From Octopus vulgaris (Eukaryota), in assembly GCA_951406725.2 (NCBI GenBank), contig OX597835.1:18104001-18168000 (forward strand): 64,000 nucleotides of DNA. Direction: 5' to 3'. Each line of letters begins with the position of its first letter. The stretch's first letter is position 1. Shown here one piece after another: positions 7,281 to 52,345 of this stretch. A program made the translations under genes and the position numbers. Under the pieces are notes generated by a model. That model was given only the letters and a program-made list of their open reading frames with translations. It did not search any database and was not told the origin of the DNA.

Positions 7281-7315
7281 ATTTAACGTTTCGAGGAAAG
7301 CTCTTCTTCAGAAAT
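7281..7315 (-). ncRNA. Minimal type I hammerhead motif in (TA)n-embedded repeat family D2 (~7205-7370)
   Basis: Minus strand: attt CTGAAGA a gag ctttc ctc GAAA c GTT aaat; stem I attt/aaat, palindromic acgt in place of stem III. Confidence 0.6.
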
Positions 7316-10448: not shown

Positions 10449-10817
10449 ATGGCTGTGTGGTTCCAGGTTCAGTCCCACTGCGTGGCATGTTGGGCAAGTG
10501 TCTTGTACTATATCCTCGGGCCGATCAAAGCCTTGTGAGTGGAGTTGGTAGACGGAAACTGAAAGAAGTCCGTTGTATATATGTATATATGTGTGTGTGT
10601 ATGTTTGTGTGTCTGTGTTTGTCCCCCTAGCATTGCTTGACAACCGATGCTGGTGTGTTTACGTCGCCGTCACTTAGCGGTTCGGCAAAAGAGAGCGATA
10701 GAATAAGTACTGGGCTTACAAAGAATAAGTCCCGGGGTCGATTTGCTCGACTAAAAGGCGGTGTTCCAGCATGGCCGCAGTCAAATGACTGAAACAAATA
10801 GAAGAGTAAAAGAGTAA
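10449..10817 (+). mobile_element. SINE family A with small 5' deletion
   Basis: Colinear with 494-926. Confidence 0.9.
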
Positions 10818-10863
10818 AACAATTGGAGCTAGAGAACAGGAGGACGGGACTAGGAACATTAGT

Positions 10864-17707: not shown

Positions 17708-17861
17708 TTCTCTCTCTCCGTTTACTTCTTTGTGTTCCTTTCTGTTGAAGAGCGTAGGCTCGAAATATAAAGCCTTTTCTAACATTCCCGAGCGTCAAAC
17801 TAATACATCTGCTTGTAGTTTATACACCTGTCTTCGTCTTCTTTTTTCTGTGAATTTCAAC
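17708..17861 (+). mobile_element. Repeat family D with hammerhead-like motif (17738-17772)
   Basis: cttt CTGTTGA a gagc gtag gctc GAAA tataaag; ends in (TA)n. Confidence 0.7.
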
Positions 17862-17894
<33 letters not shown>

Positions 17895-21728: not shown

Positions 21729-21905
21729 CGGGAAGCTTTATGAAAATAAACAAAAGACGAAGGCAGGTGAAATACAAACAAACAATTGTATTAGTATGGC
21801 GCTCAGGAATATAAATAAAACAAGTCTTTTACGTTTCGAGCCTACGCTCTTCAACAGGAAGATACACAGAAAAGAAACACGGAGAGAAACAAGGAGAGAA
21901 AAAAA
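21729..21905 (-). mobile_element. Repeat family D with hammerhead-like motif (21826-21861)
   Basis: Minus strand: cttc CTGTTGA a gagc gtag gctc GAAA c GTA aaag. Confidence 0.7.
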
Positions 21906-23673: not shown

Positions 23674-23863
23674 TTATTCATAATTCCCCTATCCATTACC
23701 TACAAGGTTTGAAAGTTTCATTAGCTCAAACAGAACAATGAAAATTCGAGAGACTCTGGAATGTTTCCTTCGAACGAAATGTATCCCTGCTACTATTAAA
23801 GAATTGGAAAATCATGTTTTTTTTTTACTGAAATAGATAAAAGTTTAATATCATTAGCTGTCA

Positions 23864-24275
23864 TAGGCGCAGGAGTGGCTGTGTGGTAAGTAGCTTGCTA
23901 ACCAACCACATGGTTCCGGGTTCAGTCCCACTGCGTGGCATCTTGGGCAAGTGTCCTTTGCTATAGCCCCGGGCCGACCAATGCCTTGTGAGTGGATTTG
24001 GTAGACGGAAACTGAAAGAAACCTGTTGTATATATGTATATATATATATATATATGTATGCGTGTGTGTGTGTATTTGTCCCCCTAGCATTGCTTGACAA
24101 CGGATGCTGGTGTGTTTACGTCCCCGTCACTTAGCGGTTCGGCAAAAGAGACCGATAGAATAAGTACTGGGCTTACAAAGAATAAGTCCCGGGGTCGATT
24201 TGCTCAACTAAAGGCGGTGCTCCAGCATGGCCGCAGTCAAATGACTGAAACAAGTAAAAGAGAAAAGAGAGAGAG
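23864..24275 (+). mobile_element. SINE family A, full length
   Basis: Colinear with 494-926 and 44657-45072. Confidence 0.92.
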
Positions 24276-24539
24276 TATGACACCACCCTTGCGCATATTT
24301 CACTGATCATGTGGTTTATGCTCCACACATTGTTAAAAGTGTTCCTTTGCGGAATCGACAACGAAGAACAAGAAGCATTTTCATTGAAAGCAGCAGAAGT
24401 GAAATGATTGGGAAGACTACAACTGTAATATAAAAGCGGGTGGCAGAGGAATTTGTCGTTGGAATAAACTGTTCTGATGACACTAAGCAGAATTCAAACT
24501 GTTAAGTTCTGTGTCGACATTCCATAAATAATATTAAAC

Positions 24540-28029: not shown

Positions 28030-28381
28030 TCTGCTTGATGATGATGATGATGAAGGCGAAGGCAGCTGCGGAGGCTGCGATGGTGGTGGTATCGGCGATG
28101 ATAATGACGATGATGGCAATGATGATGATGATGACGAAATAAAGATCAGCAGAATTATGATGATATAACACTACTGTTAATAATGATGATGATAATGATG
28201 ATGACGATGATGACGATGACAATAACGACGATGGCGATGACCACCACGACGATAATAATGATGTAATATTGTGGAAGATGCTTTGTAGCAGTGGTGGTGG
28301 GCATGAAAAGGATTTCCTATTGACATTAGTTACGATGATAATGAATAAGATGAAGTCACGATGAAGATTATAACGATGTTA

Positions 28382-28436
<55 letters not shown>

Positions 28437-28784
28437 CGATGACGATGATGATGATGATGATTGTGGCCACGACATTAGTGATGGTGACAGCGAGGATGAA
28501 GAAGATGATGGCGATGATAATGATGATGCTGAACGTGATGAAGATGATGATGATGGTTATGATGCCGACGACGATGACTATTATGATGATGATGATAATA
28601 GTGATGCTGATGGTGACGATGACGATGACGATGATGATGATGGTGTTGATGATGGAGATGATGAGATATATGGGTATAGAATGAGGAAATGGAAAAGGAT
28701 AAGGATAATAATGACAGTGATGATGATGACAATGACGACGATGATGGCGATGATAATGCTAATGGTGATGAGGATGATGATGAA

Positions 28785-28847
<63 letters not shown>

Positions 28848-28867
28848 GATGACGACGATGATGATGG

Positions 28868-28907
<40 letters not shown>

Positions 28908-28918
28908 GATGATGATGG

Positions 28919-28964
<46 letters not shown>

Positions 28965-29018
28965 GATGATGATGAAGATGATGATGAAGATGATGATGGT
29001 GACGATGATGATGATGAC

Positions 29019-29093
<75 letters not shown>

Positions 29094-29138
29094 GATGATG
29101 ATGATGAAGATGATGATGGTGACGATGATGATGATGAC

Positions 29139-29178
<40 letters not shown>

Positions 29179-29500
29179 GTGGCCACGACATTAGTGATGG
29201 TGACAGCGAGGATGAAGAAGATGATGGCGATGATAATGATGATGCTGAACGTGATGAAGATGACAGCGAGGATGAAGAAGATGATGATGATGATTATGAT
29301 GATGATGATAATAGTGATGCTGATGGTGACGATGACGATGACGATGATGATGATGGTGTTGATGAAGGAGATGATGAGATATATGGGTATAGAATGAGGA
29401 AATGGAAAAGGATAAGGATAATAATGACAGTGATGATGATGATGACAATGACGACGATGATGGCGATGATAATGCTAATGGTGATGAGGATGATGATGAA

Positions 29501-29560
<60 letters not shown>

Positions 29561-29580
29561 GATGACGACGATGATGATGG

Positions 29581-29617
<37 letters not shown>

Positions 29618-29628
29618 GATGATGATGG

Positions 29629-29689
<61 letters not shown>

Positions 29690-29731
29690 GATGATGATGA
29701 AGATGATGATGGTAACGATGATGATGATGAC

Positions 29732-29776
<45 letters not shown>

Positions 29777-29854
29777 AATGATGATGGTGATGATGGTGAT
29801 GATGATGATGATGATGATGATGAAGATGATGATGGTGACGATGATGATGATGAC

Positions 29855-29899
<45 letters not shown>

Positions 29900-29989
29900 A
29901 ATGATGATGGTGATGATGGTGATGATGATGATGATGATGATGATGAAGATGATGATGAAGATGATGATGGTGACGATGATGATGATGAC

Positions 29990-30025
<36 letters not shown>
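28030..30025. repeat. (GAT)n array containing a ~715-bp tandem duplication
   Basis: Anchors tgtggccacgacattagt at 28462 and 29178; atgggtatagaatgaggaaatgg at ~28670 and ~29383. Confidence 0.9.
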
Positions 30026-37500: not shown

Positions 37501-38103
37501 ACCACAACAATGTTTCAATCTTTGCTGTTGTTATCGTTGTGATTGTGATTTGTTCTTGTTGTCAAGATTTACCATTATGATGATTATTGCAGTTCTATTC
37601 GCTGAAAGCACAAATATTTTAAGTACTCAACAACATATGGAACAATATGTACGAAGGGATTCTTGAGAAATTGGTTAAATATAATTTTCTGAGTTTTATA
37701 TATATTTCGTTTTAAGTAGTTGTCATTTGTTTGTGCATGCATCTTGTTTTGTATCATTTTCAGTGAAGCTTTCTTGGTTGTTATAATAGCTTTGATAACT
37801 TTCTGTAGCATTCTCTTTCTTCTCTTTCCCCCTCTCTCTCTCTCCATCTCTCTCTGTTTGCCTCTTCCTACATCTCTTGTCTGTTTGTCTCCAACATTCA
37901 GGACGTACTCAAAATCTATGTATCATAACCTCATTTTATTTCTTCATCAGACTCTGTATGTATGTATGTATGTATGTATGTATGTATGTATGTATGTATG
38001 TATGTATGTATGTATGTATGTATGTATGTATGTGTGTATGTATGTATGTATGTATGTATGTATGTATGTATGTATGTATGTATGTATGTATCTATCTATC
38101 TAA

Positions 38104-38160
<57 letters not shown>

Positions 38161-38218
38161 CATCTATCTATTTGTCATTCTTGCTTTCTGCCTGCCTGTC
38201 TGTTTCTCTGTCTATCTG

Positions 38219-38263
<45 letters not shown>

Positions 38264-38328
38264 ATATCTATATTTATATCTATCCATCTATATATATATT
38301 GCCATATCCCGATCTCTCCATCTATTCT

Positions 38329-38446
<118 letters not shown>

Positions 38447-38618
38447 CATATATCTATGTCTATCTATCTACCCACCTACCCACTCAACTACCTCTCTGTC
38501 TATCTCTTTGTCAGTATGTTTGTCTGTGTAGCCAGATACCCGTCTGTCTATCTCTATATATTAATACTTACATTGCTTTCTTTCTCAGTCACGCACACCC
38601 ACACATACATTGTCTCTT

Positions 38619-38668
<50 letters not shown>

Positions 38669-38736
38669 CAATATATATATACACATATATCCACTGATAT
38701 ACACACCTATATGTATGTATATATATATATATGTAT

Positions 38737-38771
<35 letters not shown>

Positions 38772-38780
38772 AATATATAT

Positions 38781-38813
<33 letters not shown>

Positions 38814-38957
38814 AATAGACACACGCATAAACATGTTTATATACATGCATACAATCATACATTCGTATGCACATATTGTATATTGACTTTGATTTTATAG
38901 ACAGTTTAATTTATCCGTCTTTACGCATGTCTCTGTCTGTCTCTTACATTATCTATC

Positions 38958-39016
<59 letters not shown>

Positions 39017-39018
39017 GG

Positions 39019-39066
<48 letters not shown>

Positions 39067-39070
39067 ACAG

Positions 39071-39104
<34 letters not shown>

Positions 39105-39294
39105 GTGTATTGGTAGATAGATATTATCTATCTAATCTATTTGTCAACAGATTTGCATATTTCTCTTTATATGCATGTATTTTTATGTCCTAATACATCT
39201 ATGTAAGCATATATAATAAATATACACACTAAAGTACAATATATCTGCATGGTGTTTATTATATTAGCATATATATAAATATATAAATATATGA

Positions 39295-39338
<44 letters not shown>

Positions 39339-39797
39339 ATGTGTGTATGTGTGTGTGTATGCGTATATGTGTGTGTGCGTGCACGTGTCTAAGTGCATAG
39401 GAAATAGAAACGAGCAGACAAAAGGAGATTTTACATATGATGGATAATTCTATTTTTCTGACTGATTTTTGAAGGGTGTACATATAATGACAATTTATAT
39501 AATTACGTCATTAACATACATATTTAATTATTTTAAATTACACGATGCAACATTGATGAGATTTTTACAAATAGTAACACACTGGCATGCACACGTGCAC
39601 ACGCAAACTTGTTTAGAATCTTATCTGCTTAAATTTCAAACTGACGATGGTAGATTATGTATTATACAAACACACATTTATATATAGGCATGGTAGATGA
39701 GTTCAGTGAAAAATTTAGATTCGGATGAATATGGTACTTAATTTGAGGCACAATAAATTAGTAAGGTATTATCTATACAATTTCAAAATAAGTTGAT

Positions 39798-39881
39798 TAA
39801 TCAAAATAAGCAGCATGGATATCTAGAGGTAATGCAACCCTCTGCATTACCCCTGGATATCCATGCTGCTTATTTTGATTA
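39798..39881. repeat. Near-perfect hairpin, 39-bp arms and 6-nt loop
   Basis: taatcaaaataagcagcatggatatctagaggtaatgca accctc tgcattacccctggatatccatgctgcttattttgatta. Confidence 0.9.
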
Positions 39882-40627
39882 CAAAGCGATAAACTTTGTC
39901 TTTGTCTACGTATGTGGATTATGTATGTTTGTGTATTGTGACCCCTTCGCTCATGAATGACCGTGGGATTGCACCTCGAAAGTTACATGCAATTTCACAA
40001 TAAGGTGATTAAAATCAAAATCGATATCATTGTTGCTTATTTTGATATATGTATTTATATACAGAGAGAGAGAGAGAGAGGGGGAGGAGAGAGGTCCATA
40101 ATAGAACAGCAGTCCGCAGCCCAAAGTGTCACAAAATGTGACTGGATCCGAAGCTACATTCATGCAAAGCGAAATCTTGTCCATAGAGCAATGTCGCGCC
40201 TATAGAGTAGGAATACCAAAAATATCCTGTGAGGTGAGGAGAAGAATGGCAGGAGATAATGGAAAATGAACTGAAAATCACACACGTATAGGTACACACA
40301 CATATACATACATATACGCACAGTCACACATATAATAACAGGTAATATGAATTAATAAATCCTGGCAGATATGTAGTTCAGTTATTATATCCGTTCGCTT
40401 TCAATTCAAGTTGTTATGGGTTACCTTGATAACATTTTATTCGTATAGCTTTCGGATATATTAAAATGGTTGGTATTCCACACCTTTTTCTATATCAAAG
40501 AAAATACGCTGATGGGATGGAAAATATCGTTGGTCTTGTATGGTATAAAAACCAAATAAATATGTGATATTCTACATTATTGTTGTACATGTATACACAG
40601 ACAGACAGACAGACACACACACACATT

Positions 40628-40787
40628 CTCTCTCTGTTTATTTCCTCTTGTTCCTTTCTGTGGAAGAGCGCAGGCTCGAAACGTAAAAGACTTCCTCGTC
40701 TTCCCGAGCGTCAAACTATTAACTTGCCTCTTGTTTATTTGTTTATACACCTGTCTTCATCTTTTGTTTTTTCTGTAAATTTCAACT
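40628..40787 (+). mobile_element. Repeat family D with hammerhead-like motif (40654-40689)
   Basis: cttt CTGTGGA a gagc gcag gctc GAAA c GTA aaag; ends in (TA)n. Confidence 0.7.
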
Positions 40788-40807
40788 ATATATATATATA
40801 TATATAC

Positions 40808-41182
40808 ATTCTGGCGTTGATTTGGTCTTAGAGTCCATAGCCCCTAGCTAGCTATGTGACACACAAACCTGTGTCAATAACAACATTCGAATAAGGGAGA
40901 GATTTAGAAATATTAATATTTCTATTTTTGAAAATCAGTGGATGTATTCTGTTAAATATACATAAATAAACCTCCTTCGAACAGACAGTCAGCAGCGACC
41001 CCTTCTGGGTTCGGCTACTCCATATTGAGAAGGGGAAAAATAGCCCGAAACCAGTCTGTGGTTGTTGAACCAGCAAGGGGTATCTGCTGACCTCCCCCAT
41101 CGAAAGTTGTGATGGATACAGTTTTGTGTGTCACATAGCTAACGAGAAGCGATGGCCTCTTGGAGCTAATCAATGGCAGAAT
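40808..41182 (+). ncRNA. Rod-like foldback capped by a U3-A8 variant type I hammerhead (41020-41061)
   Basis: ccata TTGAGAA ggg gaaaaatag ccc GAAA c ca GTC tgtgg; stem I extended by ttcggc/gttgaa, ctgg/ccag, acccctt/aaggggt, gtcagcag/ctgctgac; outer arms 40808-40897/41094-41182. Confidence 0.6.
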
Positions 41183-41279
41183 TCGTCCTATTTTCCTGGA
41201 CTACCATGGTAGCTTGGCGATAAATATTAATATCCAGTACTGCTGCCGTAGTCTCCTATAGAGAGATTTAGATATATCA

Positions 41280-41312
<33 letters not shown>

Positions 41313-41332
41313 CATATATATATCTATTTCTA

Positions 41333-41371
<39 letters not shown>

Positions 41372-41397
41372 ATGCATATATATATGCATGTATTCAC

Positions 41398-41460
<63 letters not shown>

Positions 41461-43099
41461 GATATTTACATCTTTCCTTCCAAGTTCGTTTGAGAGGGTT
41501 TAATCGTCTATTTCCAAGTCAAAAATTTCGGGGCAGGGTATAAATCGATTAGAACGTCTCGCTCTGCTCAACTCAATATTATTTTATATACCTCAACCCC
41601 CAAAAAATGAAAGGCAAAGTCGGCATTTGAACCTAAACGGGCGAAAGGTCGTCAAGTGATTTACCCAGAGTGCTAATGATTTTAGCAGTTTGCTTATTAC
41701 GTTGTCTTATATATGGATTGCAAATTACTTATCAATGCCAGCGATTTTGTGTTATGAGCTAAGTCGATTGAATTAGCTCCAATACTTCAGTGGTAATTAT
41801 TTTATCGATCTCGAAAGGATGAGCGGCAAAGTCGACCTCGAGAAAATTTGAACTCGGAACCCCAAGACTGACGAAACGCTAGAAAGGTTTTGACCTGAGT
41901 GCTATTGACTCTGTTGTCTCACGGGTTTACGTTGCTTTAAATATTGAGCTCAAACTGCGCTCATCCCTTCTGAGTTGAGAAACAGTTCCTGGCCAAAGAC
42001 TGACATCGATCCATTTAATTAACTCAAATTTCACCAAAAACCCTTCTGCCGCCATTACCCCTGATATGAAATTTTGTTATTACAAGGGCGACAGATAGAT
42101 GAGTGCATTACAAGAATTAAATTATAAATTAAAAAAAAAAACACATTAAAAATATATGGGAGTCAGTTAATTAATAAAAAAAAAATAACAATAATCATAG
42201 CATTATAATGTAACGAAGACAAAAAATAAAACAAATTGAATAGAACATTAATAATGATTAGGGAAAGGGGAAAGAAATATGCTTGTTGTATTGGCTCCTT
42301 TTTTTTTTTTTAAATAATTTCCATAAATTGTTGTTAGTGTGAAATTAATTTTCTCTCTATTGTAAATTGAAAATTATAAACAGAAATTCAAAATTATAAA
42401 CAGAAAACACACTTCTTTCTCATGTTAAAAAGAAAATAATTTCGATTTTGAATTTCAAATTTTAGGGGTTGCTGCTATTCCTTTCTTCTTCTTCTTCTTC
42501 TTCTTCTTCTTCTTCTTCTTCTTCTTCTTCTTCTTGCTATTATTATTGTTGCTATCATCATCATCGTCGTCGTCATCATGATTATTATTGTTCTTATCAT
42601 TAACTTTTCTTCGTTTCTTTTTAGCAGTTAATTATTTTGTTGTGTTATTTTGTGATTTGTTTCAAATATTTTTTTCCCTATTCCGACTAGAATTATATTA
42701 CCATATTTCATTTTTAAATAATAATTTTGAATTGAAAGGAGCCTTGTTGCCTTGCACTGAGGCTGTTTCCGAGTGTTTGCAGTATTTTCCTTGATTAACG
42801 CCTTGCCCAATGTGACCAACCTTTCTTATATATTTGTTCTGATTTACTATACCAGGGACAAGGTTGATCAATGCTCTCTTCATTTAAGGCAGGGATTCTC
42901 AAACTTTGGGGTCACCGCGCCTCCTCATGGCCACATAATACTCTCAGCGATCCGACCGCTATTTTTTACGTATAAATAAACATTTTATATCTTACTAATT
43001 TATATATACTATGAATCATTTGATATTTAATATAAAATTAAATAAATTGTATACAATACCATAATAATATAATAAATTCACAGCGTCCCCCCAGTTCTA

Positions 43100-44350
43100 G
43101 GAGGCGCCACAAGTTGCCCAGAGGAGGTGCCCACCACGTTAAGGTTGATGAGGAAATGCGAGCCGGGCTTCAGGTGATTATTGATGCCAACCCACTCGCA
43201 ATCCTTTACAAATGAAGTGGGACTTAGAGATAGCATTGCCCGGAAAGCTCCCTGTTTCCGTGTCTGCAATCTCACGGGCCCTAGATGGGATGTTGATAAC
43301 TATGAATTTGGCCGAGTACGTCCCAAGTACAAGAAATACCCCCAAGAATTCTGGAAAAGCATTAAGAGTACGCGCATTGGTTCATAGAAGAGGATGTCGT
43401 CGACTATTACATTTTTATTGATGAATGTGGGTACAACTTTTGGACCAGGCGGTCCTTTGGACGAGCACCTCGAGGCGTTCCCGTTCTCCGAGTTTTGAGA
43501 AAAACTGCAACGTCACTTTCGAGGTGTCGGGAGAAATCGGCCTGGTTCACAACTCCATTGCGAATGATACGGTTACACGAAACTCTTTCGAGGGGTTCTT
43601 GGTGGAAACAGTTCGAACATGTGCCGACATTTTCGCAGTGGATGAATTCGTCTACTTGATCTACGACAACACGCGGCCACGCGTTAGTGGCTAGCTCCCG
43701 CGGAGGCGCAATGGCCCAGTGGTTAGGGCACCGGACTCGCCGTCATACGATCGCGGTTTCGATTCCCAGAAAGGGCGTTGTGAGTGTTTATTGAGCGAAA
43801 ACACCTAAAAGCTCCACAAAGCTCCGGCAGGGGGTGGTGGTAATCCCTGCTGTACTCTTTCACCACAACTTTCTCTCACTCTTACTTCCTGTTTCTGTTG
43901 TACCTGTATTTCAAAGGGCCGGCCTTGTCACTCTCTGTGTCACGCTGAATATCCCCGAGAACTACGTTAAGGGTGCACGTGTCTGTGGAGTGCTCAGCCA
44001 CTTACATGTTAATTTCACGAGCAGGCTGTTCCGTTGATTCGGATCAACCGGAACCCTCATCGTCGTAACCGACGGAGTGCTTCCGTCCCCAGTGGCTAGC
44101 TCCCAGTTGACGCCGTTTCTTAATTGGAAACGGTGTATTCTGCTTTAAGAGCGGTTGTGAAGCAGGACCTCGCTCGAGCTGAGTTGCAGCAAAGGGTTGG
44201 CGACCGGGCAGCTACAGAAGAAGCAGGCATGACCATGGAAGAATGGCGATCATATGTTATACAACTGGTTGCAAGGCGTAACATCGACGCTATCACTCTA
44301 GAAAATTGTGTTCCTTGGTATAGACACACACAGACCTACTTCTCGTGATA
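43100..44350 (+). pseudogene. Decayed IS630/Tc1-superfamily DDE transposase, split by a SINE
   Basis: YIFIDECGYNFWTRRSFGRAPRG (43408), VYLIYDNTRP, then after the SINE TPFLN / ETVYSALRAVVKQ. Confidence 0.75.
43700..44090 (+). mobile_element. SINE family B, tail type 1, 14-bp TSD
   Basis: TSD agtggctagctccc at 43686-43699 and 44091-44104; A and B boxes in head. Confidence 0.92.
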
Positions 44351-44656
44351 CTTCGTCTGCCAGGAAATAGACGATTAAATCCTCTCAAACGAACTCTCCT
44401 CATCGAGACTGTAAAGAAATAATTATCCCAGAGTGAGCAGCACGCTTTTTCTGATGAAAGAAAAAAAATGCAAAATCAAAGAAATATATACTTTTCGCAA
44501 CAAGAGATACTATGCAAAGGAAGAATACATGTCGCAACATAATGTATTCAAAATCAAAGAAAATAAGCATTTTTCTAATTGTGATATTCTTGAAAAATAT
44601 TGAGAAGCCTGGAATGTGATGTCATGAAGTATTTAACGACAAATACACGTACAAAT

Positions 44657-44822
44657 AGGCGCAGGAGTGGCTGTGTGGTAAGTAGGTTGCTAACCAGCCA
44701 CATGGTTCCGGGTTCAGTCCCACTGCGTGGCATCTTGGACAAGTGTCTTCTGCTATAGCCCCGGGCCGACCAATGCCTTGTGAGTGGATTTGGTAGACGG
44801 AAACTGAAAGAAGCCCGTCGTA

Positions 44823-44867
<45 letters not shown>

Positions 44868-45072
44868 TTGTGTGTCTGTGCTTGTCCCCCTAGCATTGCT
44901 TGACAACCGATGCTGGTGTGTTTACGTCCCCGTAACTTAGCGGTTCGGCAAAAAGAGACCGATAGAATAAGTACTGGGTTTACAAAGAATAAGTCCCCGG
45001 GGTCGATTTGCTCGATTAAAGGCGGTGCTCCAGCATGGCCGCAGTCAAATGACTGAAACAAGTAAAAGAGAG
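44657..45072 (+). mobile_element. SINE family A, full length
   Basis: Nearly identical to 23864-24275. Confidence 0.92.
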
Positions 45073-51530: not shown

Positions 51531-51959
51531 GAACTCTATGTAATATATGTAATATTAAGAAAGAGAAGGTAGTGAGTTAATAGAATCTTTAGCAAACCAC
51601 ACAAAATGCTTAGCGGGATTTAACTTCTTTACGTTCTGGGATCAAATCTTCGCCGAAGTTGACTTTGCCTTTCATCCTCCTAGGGCCGATAAATAAAGTA
51701 CCAGTCCAACACAACGTCGATGTAATCGACTTGTAACTTCCACGAAATTGCTGGCATTTTGCCAAAATTTGAAACGAATTTAACATAAGACATCTTGAGT
51801 CTATGTGTACATACGCACCAGTGTGTGTGTGTGTGCTGGTCAGGTGAACAAATACACATATATATATACATTCATACGGACGCGCAGGTTTGTATGAATC
51901 CACCATAGCTAAATTGATTGCTAGAGAACGCGTACACACAAAAGCATACACACTTGGAT

Positions 51960-52101
51960 AAATACCTTGCTTCCCAACCATATAGTTCCGGGTTCAGTCC
52001 CACAACCTGGTACTTTTGCAAGTAAATTCTGTTATAGCCTCGGCCCGACCAAAGTCTTGTGAGTCGATTTGGCAGCCGGAAACTGAGAGAATCCCGTCGT
52101 A

Positions 52102-52139
<38 letters not shown>

Positions 52140-52345
52140 TATGTTTGTATTTCTGTGCTTGTTTCCCCCACCATTGTTTGACAACCGATGTCGGTGGGAT
52201 TACGCCTCCGTAACGTAGCGGTTCACCCAAAGAAGCCGATAGAATAAGTGCTAGAATAAGGTCCTGGAGTCGGTTTATTCGACTAAACGCGTTGCTCCAG
52301 CATGGCAGCAGACACATGACTGAAACAAGTAAAAGAATAAAAGAA
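51960..52345 (+). mobile_element. SINE family A, older diverged copy
   Basis: Colinear with family A; tail gactgaaacaagtaaaagaataaaaga. Confidence 0.8.

Follow-up and report, generated by a model that had tools for sequence, protein, structure and literature searches.

The window analysed here is a stretch of 64,000 nucleotides from Octopus vulgaris (assembly GCA_951406725.2, contig OX597835.1, positions 18,104,001 to 18,168,000 of the forward strand). The locus studied in it reads as the decayed remains of an old insertion; the inserted sequence is a non-coding repeat of 361 bp with many copies in the genome. Its features are as follows.

40787..40806, no strand: (TA)n microsatellite of the left flank, in which an adjacent repeat of another kind also has its 3′ end
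40808..40896, − strand: inverted 5′ arm, the reverse complement of unit positions about 200–283, which gives the rod
40897..41260, + strand: one full non-coding monomer, 364 bp here, about 41% GC
40905..40924, + strand: site B in its first pass, a 20-bp AT-rich palindrome at unit positions 20–40
40974..41105, + strand: long imperfect hairpin extending hammerhead helix I, a feature of the family
41019..41062, + strand: type I hammerhead motif, U3-A8 variant, predicted to cut after C41056
41220..41233, + strand: site A, the second fixed 3′ end, at unit positions 325–336
41234..41280, + strand: the "tail", which starts at site A, crosses the junction between units and stops at the 3′ end near site B
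41281..41322, no strand: (CA)n/(TA)n microsatellite of the right flank

The initial annotation had described a rod-shaped element at 40808-41182. The fold itself was confirmed, as the + strand of this interval reached −158.6 kcal/mol (z −11.9) and 0 of 100 shuffles were as good; the − strand reached −154.3 kcal/mol (z −11.1). The proposed outer arms, 40808-40890 and 41100-41182, are 80% complementary, and the repeat reported at 40897 and 41261 is present with a spacing of 364 bp. The second pass of the unit begins at 41261. The boundaries had to be moved, because the copies in the genome match 40897-41280 instead. What had been taken for the left arm (40808-40896) is part of the unit in inverted orientation, a feature of this one insertion, and its outer end lies about 50 bp short of site A. 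The 375-nt rod found no support either as an element or as a selected structure; its left arm is an inverted duplicate of locus-specific extent. The suggested bias towards G-U pairs on the + strand was not found in the arms, where 17 of 83 positions are mismatched, with 3 G-U pairs on the + strand and 3 on the − strand. Compared with the family majority, the two arms differ at 14/84 and 11/84 positions and share only 2 derived letters, so the mismatches between them look like post-insertion decay. The whole unit differs from the majority at 38 of 360 positions. Because the inverted arm varies among loci and the two arms decayed independently, the rod is a by-product of one old insertion. The structure that belongs to the family is the long hairpin extending helix I.

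The letters of the hammerhead lie where the initial annotation had placed them, TTGAGAA at 41025-41031 and GAAA at 41047-41050, with U3 at 41025, A8 at 41030 and C17 at 41056. Helix I (41019-41024/41057-41062) forms 5 of its 6 pairs and helix II 3 of 4. Loop 3, palindromic in the family (ACTAGT), reads ACCAGT here and so has lost its palindrome. Loop 2 may resemble the canonical loop of Schistosoma. The Rfam scan of window positions 38000-44000 gave no hammerhead match; its 40 weak matches were mostly to microRNA models, many of them on simple repeats. A scan of another copy (L004:1560-1720) gave 0 matches. The window locus has one hammerhead motif only. The mark of an "active" retrozyme in the relevant passage of Li et al. 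2026 (bioRxiv 10.64898/2026.07.22.740005), two or more successive units carrying a complete hammerhead, is therefore absent at the window locus; it is present in young arrays elsewhere in the genome. The window copy is probably inactive.

Several other features were observed in the window. Directly upstream of the insertion, a different short repeat (40627-40786) ends in a TA repeat and holds a hammerhead-like motif at about 40653-40690, a hairpin followed by GAAACGT, with an uncertain core register. This repeat also occurs at 17711-17880, near 21857 on the − strand, and at loci L074 and L076. A descriptor scan found a minimal hammerhead-like motif with a CTGAAGA core near 7315 on the − strand. 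A near-perfect palindromic hairpin of about 80 nt lies at 39797-39881, with weak matches to microRNA models below the cut-off. A 400-bp repeat has five copies in the window, 74–92% alike (487-928, 10458-10819, 23863-24278, 44650-45071 and 51959-52344), and 28097-30022 is duplicated in tandem (period about 718 bp, 86% identity).

The 2.8-Gb genome was searched with 40780-41300, which gave 2009 candidates. Among the 40 of these that were scored, the top ones matched 40897-41280 at 77–87%, and a few other loci aligned to query positions 29–501. A unit of about 361 bp repeats head to tail; most old-subfamily copies have 361 bp, compared with 364 bp at the window locus. Exact matches to the U3-A8 core numbered 125 with the loop CTAG and 2177 with other loop-3 letters, and the reversed-pattern controls gave 0 matches. 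Counted by exact core matches, the family thus has no fewer than about 2,300 members in the genome. Its subfamilies include the old one, to which the window copy belongs, as well as middle and young ones and a sister with C3-G8. By rough identities the subfamilies are 67–80% alike; the tree kept 18 rows after filtering, with no C3-G8 row. The young subfamily has 664 exact matches to a 27-mer. Its units, of 362 bp, are mostly 98–100% alike and 73% identical to the window unit. Young arrays contain at least 5 units and the old subfamily attains about 2; in one young array of about 5 units, the units differ from one another by 0–1 letters. Three young units have no ATG frame longer than 38 aa, and the window unit has none longer than 68 aa; the GC content is 0.41. 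No RT plus GIY-YIG reading frame was found within the unit, and the copy maps showed neither fixed terminal inverted repeats (TIRs) nor an LTR layout.

The initial annotation had named two outcomes that would speak against it, namely loss of the core in other copies and the TSDs and perfect TIRs of an ordinary MITE. Neither occurred. In 30 copies chosen on whole-unit similarity, U3 was kept in 30, A8 in 29 and TTGANAA in 27, and the family has no TIRs. Loop 3 was palindromic in 25 of the 30 copies. Single changes were seen in the old subfamily, with another letter at position 3 in 9 cases and at position 8 in 5. All 13 double changes at positions 3 and 8 were to C3-G8, and they belong to a homologous sister subfamily with the same end sites as the rest of the family. 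The C3-G8 pattern with the letters at 10.1 and 11.1 fixed gave 0 matches, and the looser pattern gave these 13.

The loop-3 hexamer varies among the palindromes ACTAGT, ACATGT and ACGCGT, with the central pair intact in 48/49 copies, and three of the six helix I pairs change on both sides between subfamilies. Across 49 aligned copies, 89.1% of cells pair, compared with 85.1 ± 0.4% in shuffled controls and 32–38% in slid ones. Cells changed on both sides numbered 95 (47.4 ± 5.8 shuffled). Two measures did not exceed the control: pairs with a double change (12, control 10.9 ± 1.5, 184 of 500 shuffles being as high) and further pair types (40, control 42.8). Since the 49 copies share ancestry and were mostly picked through core patterns, the covariation reflects few events. 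It appears clearest in the three helix I pairs and the loop-3 hexamer. The selection on the motif claimed for the locus is supported at the level of the family, by the 3-8 double changes together with the helix I and loop-3 covariation. The circular unit folds better on the + strand than on the − strand in three of three units (z −7.3/−5.0, −7.7/−7.1 and −6.0/−3.1). The idea that activity may need a dimer is probably right as well. The loop-3 palindromes fit the dimer model of hammerheads in the cited part of PMC4209133.

The ends of the copies were mapped at 88 loci, which had been picked out with a 34-mer from the unit's 3′ half (30 plus 60 from the first 100 of 291 listed, minus 2 duplicates). 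Among 133 segments of at least 40 bp, 114 end at one of the two sites, 56 at site A and 58 at site B. The sites are 56 bp apart, and the tail measures 56–63 bp. The 5′ ends are scattered, and 43 of the 88 loci are arranged head to head, with an inverted arm whose extent varies from locus to locus in the copy maps. After the removal of 28 duplicates, there were 97 unique head-to-head insertions, of which 60 have both ends at A or B. In 56 of these 60, one end lies at A and the other at B. The pairing holds in old insertions (39/43, p = 1.6 × 10−8) and in young or middle ones (17/17, p = 7.6 × 10−6). At least one end lies outside A and B in the other 37 of the 97, the window locus among them. 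The arm lengths within one insertion are uncorrelated (Spearman 0.16 and −0.40, neither significant). The 3′ flanks inspected are mostly AT-rich or TA repeats. By analogy, the head-to-head pairing of A with B is the footprint of Penelope-like elements (PLEs), in which an inverted 5′ copy and a tail at one end have been described (PMC8557442, PMC3846280; passages only). The tail of a PLE lies between two reverse transcription start sites, and the PLE protein cuts and extends both DNA strands, according to parts of Frangieh et al. 2024 (PMC11167929).

PLEs are present in the same genome. GIY-YIG frames are abundant (6136 candidates, 150 of them scored), and an open frame of 781 aa was found in 8 of 12 longer loci, seven of these being 97–99% alike. 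The 781-aa frames match RVT_1 and GIY-YIG, the RVT_1 match being just below the cut-off. Their 3′ regions have TTGATAA cores and the loop ACATGT and end in TA repeats, so the U3-A8 core is also carried by autonomous PLEs of this genome. The PLE 3′ ends occur in a short form and a form about 35 bp longer, and loci L223 and L227 show one of each. When the unit was compared with 30 GIY-YIG loci, out of the 6136 candidates, and with the 12 longer loci, no sequence similarity beyond the core was found. The 781-aa PLE is a plausible partner of the repeat. Site B and PLE locus L228 share a similar stretch of 29 bp, but this was rejected, being in the wrong orientation, AT-rich and of E 0.92.

Some further observations concern these elements. 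The 781-aa PLEs have a second open frame of 333–479 aa upstream, directly after a hammerhead and tail (L219:906-1982, L220:1244-2242, L224:581-2017 and L226:818-2254); its only Pfam match is weak (E 0.0085, below the cut-off). In a second PLE family, the 3′ regions of L084, L090 and L227 carry a U3-A8 core with GCAA replacing GAAA and the loop-3 palindrome ACCGGT. A third family (L228:4800-4850; L072) has a hammerhead-like motif with a CCGAAGA core, read by eye. Locus L228 also has an inverted arm of 766 bp that is 100% identical. The GIY-YIG match at L086:1500-1650 is unlike those of PLEs and is probably an exon of a host nuclease gene, perhaps SLX1-like.

The initial annotation had proposed a retrozyme-like or Penelope-linked element, and the type I hammerhead motif of each unit, mostly U3-A8, and the PLE-type insertion footprint point the same way. 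Judged on sequence, it is very probable that the repeat is a retrozyme family mobilised by PLEs; it is likely a non-LTR retrozyme copied by PLE proteins. As in the animal non-LTR retrozymes described in parts of Cervera and de la Peña 2020 (PMC7229834) and Li et al. 2026, the unit is non-coding, lies within their range of 150–450 bp (350–390 bp in mussel) and has a GC content below 50%. It likewise carries one type I hammerhead with a short palindromic helix III, ranges from monomers to multimers and co-occurs with PLEs. Unlike the published animal retrozymes, as far as those texts describe them, most octopus subfamilies have a U3-A8 core and the copies have head-to-head arms with two fixed ends. 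No pLTR homologue was found for it, whereas 24 of 57 Xenopus families match known TEs in the cited part of Li et al. 2026.

The likeness to EN+ PLEs, taken from portions of PMC8557442, PMC3846280 and PMC11167929, lies in the 5′-truncated partial tandems, the inverted 5′ copy, the tail at one end with two reverse transcription start sites bracketing it, the AT-rich targets and the cutting and extension of both strands. Unlike these elements, the octopus unit has no ORF, and its tail is 56–63 bp long instead of the 30–40 bp described there. The PLE PAc used the same start sites on both strands in vitro (PMC11167929, in part), whereas A and B were combined in 56 of 60 octopus insertions.

We propose the following route. 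Tandem arrays would be transcribed. Two hammerheads likely pair with each other at their palindromic loops 3 and release monomers by cleavage, and a ligase of the host would then circularise these. A dimer of the PLE RT/GIY-YIG protein likely binds one such RNA and cuts both strands of a TA repeat. Reverse transcription would then begin at a different site on each of the two DNA ends, A for one and B for its partner. Each cDNA would run round the template for a variable length, beyond the ribozyme cut site, and the two cDNAs would be joined head to head. The window copy would consist of a complete pass ending at B, to which a short arm in inverted orientation is joined, which accounts for the rod at this locus. 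We favour this whole account, the circular RNA intermediate included, with some reserve. Its most specific part is a PLE dimer that primes the cut TA repeat at two assigned sites on one circular RNA and makes two rolling passes; we offer this part tentatively, with somewhat less than even confidence.

The strongest rival keeps the same family and the same PLE machinery, but its template is an uncut tandem transcript whose hammerhead cuts rarely, late or with the help of protein. The positions of the 5′ ends bear on this choice. A monomer cut at C17 is expected to limit the arms to about 178 bases (from A) or 234 bases (from B). Segments crossed the cut site in 66 of 117 cases, and 18 of 133 were longer than one unit. 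The 5′ ends did not cluster where the ribozyme is predicted to cut, with 1 of 117 ends at position 158, and the rates were 0.14–0.22 per 20 nt over positions 101–180. The missing peak fits circles and equally fits RNA that was never cut. When the paired arms of 13 young insertions were compared, they differed at 15 of 2047 sites, compared with 956 of 58,345 between insertions, and 10 non-majority letters are shared between arms. At L131 and L158, each arm has sequence absent from the other, so in these two insertions neither arm can have served as the template of its partner. The arm data are explained by one circle on which copying began at two sites, and most of them by an uncut multimer too.

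Published work lends the uncut template some weight. Parts of PMC11167929 report that PAc, the one PLE assayed in vitro, inserts unprocessed RNA, starts internally, does not need hammerhead cleavage for insertion in vitro, and has a hammerhead that needs protein. In Xenopus, only 1 of 9 retrozyme dimers was cleaved in vitro and 8 were not, according to the portion of Li et al. 2026 cited. The young arrays of at least 5 units would be possible templates. The 3-8 pair, helix I and loop-3 covariation across subfamilies nevertheless implies a working ribozyme. The near-identical units within an array are also as expected from repeated passes round a circle, and a young homogeneous source array fits them equally well. 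We regard the uncut template as the less likely of the two, though worth keeping in mind.

Contigs of four runs guessed to be RNA, aligned to an old-subfamily copy, were mixed pieces of many copies. Just one contig of these runs showed a 361-base back-joint, for which a tandem in the genome would also account. No RNA run containing unit words was among the matches listed in the sequencing-run look-up; the runs that contained at least half of the words bear four organism labels. Run X16, which is likewise presumed to be RNA, has a 328-nt contig at depth 46 that matches parts of the unit, apparently of the young subfamily.

A second rival takes the unit for the pLTR of an unsampled autonomous PLE, with the copies as its 5′-truncated fragments. 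The layout, target and tail are of the PLE type, local PLEs share the U3-A8 core, and just 30 of the 6136 GIY-YIG candidates were compared in the family search. In the maps inspected, however, longer copies run from unit into unit and never into other shared sequence. The tested PLE loci gave no similarity to the unit, and the 38-aa frame is the longest in the three young units. We consider this origin improbable.

That the 375-nt rod is itself a functional RNA, viroid-like or delta-like, is extremely unlikely: its fold (z −11.9) and a few other loci that align across query 29–501 speak for it, but the copy maps, in which the left arm is an inverted duplicate of differing extent, largely refute it, and both strands fold alike, with no G-U bias and with arms that decayed independently. 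Inverted arms of 83 bp in a TA-rich site would also suit a common MITE or a fold-back DNA transposon in which a hammerhead-like sequence had arisen by chance. This reading was rejected as hardly credible: the copies lack fixed TIRs, their 5′ ends are scattered while their 3′ ends are fixed, they contain units in tandem, and the motif shows compensatory changes.

The U3-A8 swap, retrozymes and the PLE tail are each already in print, and the octopus repeat is not a new kind of element. The swap is a natural compensatory change active in vitro, according to a passage of Perreault et al. 2011 (PMC3088659). About 1,300 U3-A8 matches tied to the Cercyon PLE are reported for Schistosoma mansoni in part of Cervera and de la Peña 2014 (PMC4209133). 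Compared with these, the octopus motif is of canonical size (6-bp helix I, 4-bp helix II) and lies in a non-autonomous repeat; compared with U3-A8 hammerheads in the published passages, the octopus family has a C3-G8 sister subfamily. Our literature searches listed no account of this family, of a cephalopod retrozyme or of U3-A8 in a retrozyme, although such cases may appear in tables that accompany the papers of 2014, 2020 and 2026.

For the return of animal retrozymes to DNA, mechanisms have so far only been proposed. The octopus family offers sequence-level support for PLE proteins carrying retrozymes, through its double ends, its one-arm tail and its TA targets. The pairing of A with B, 56 of 60, is a countable rule that is testable in the PLE in vitro assay. 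Within this one lineage, the 3-8 pair of the hammerhead switches between C-G and U-A. If the proposed route is true, coupled twin priming would be the common origin of the one-ended tail and of the inverted, head-to-head layout, and a U3-A8 lineage with a young subfamily, beside intact PLEs that share its core, would be a minimal natural substrate.
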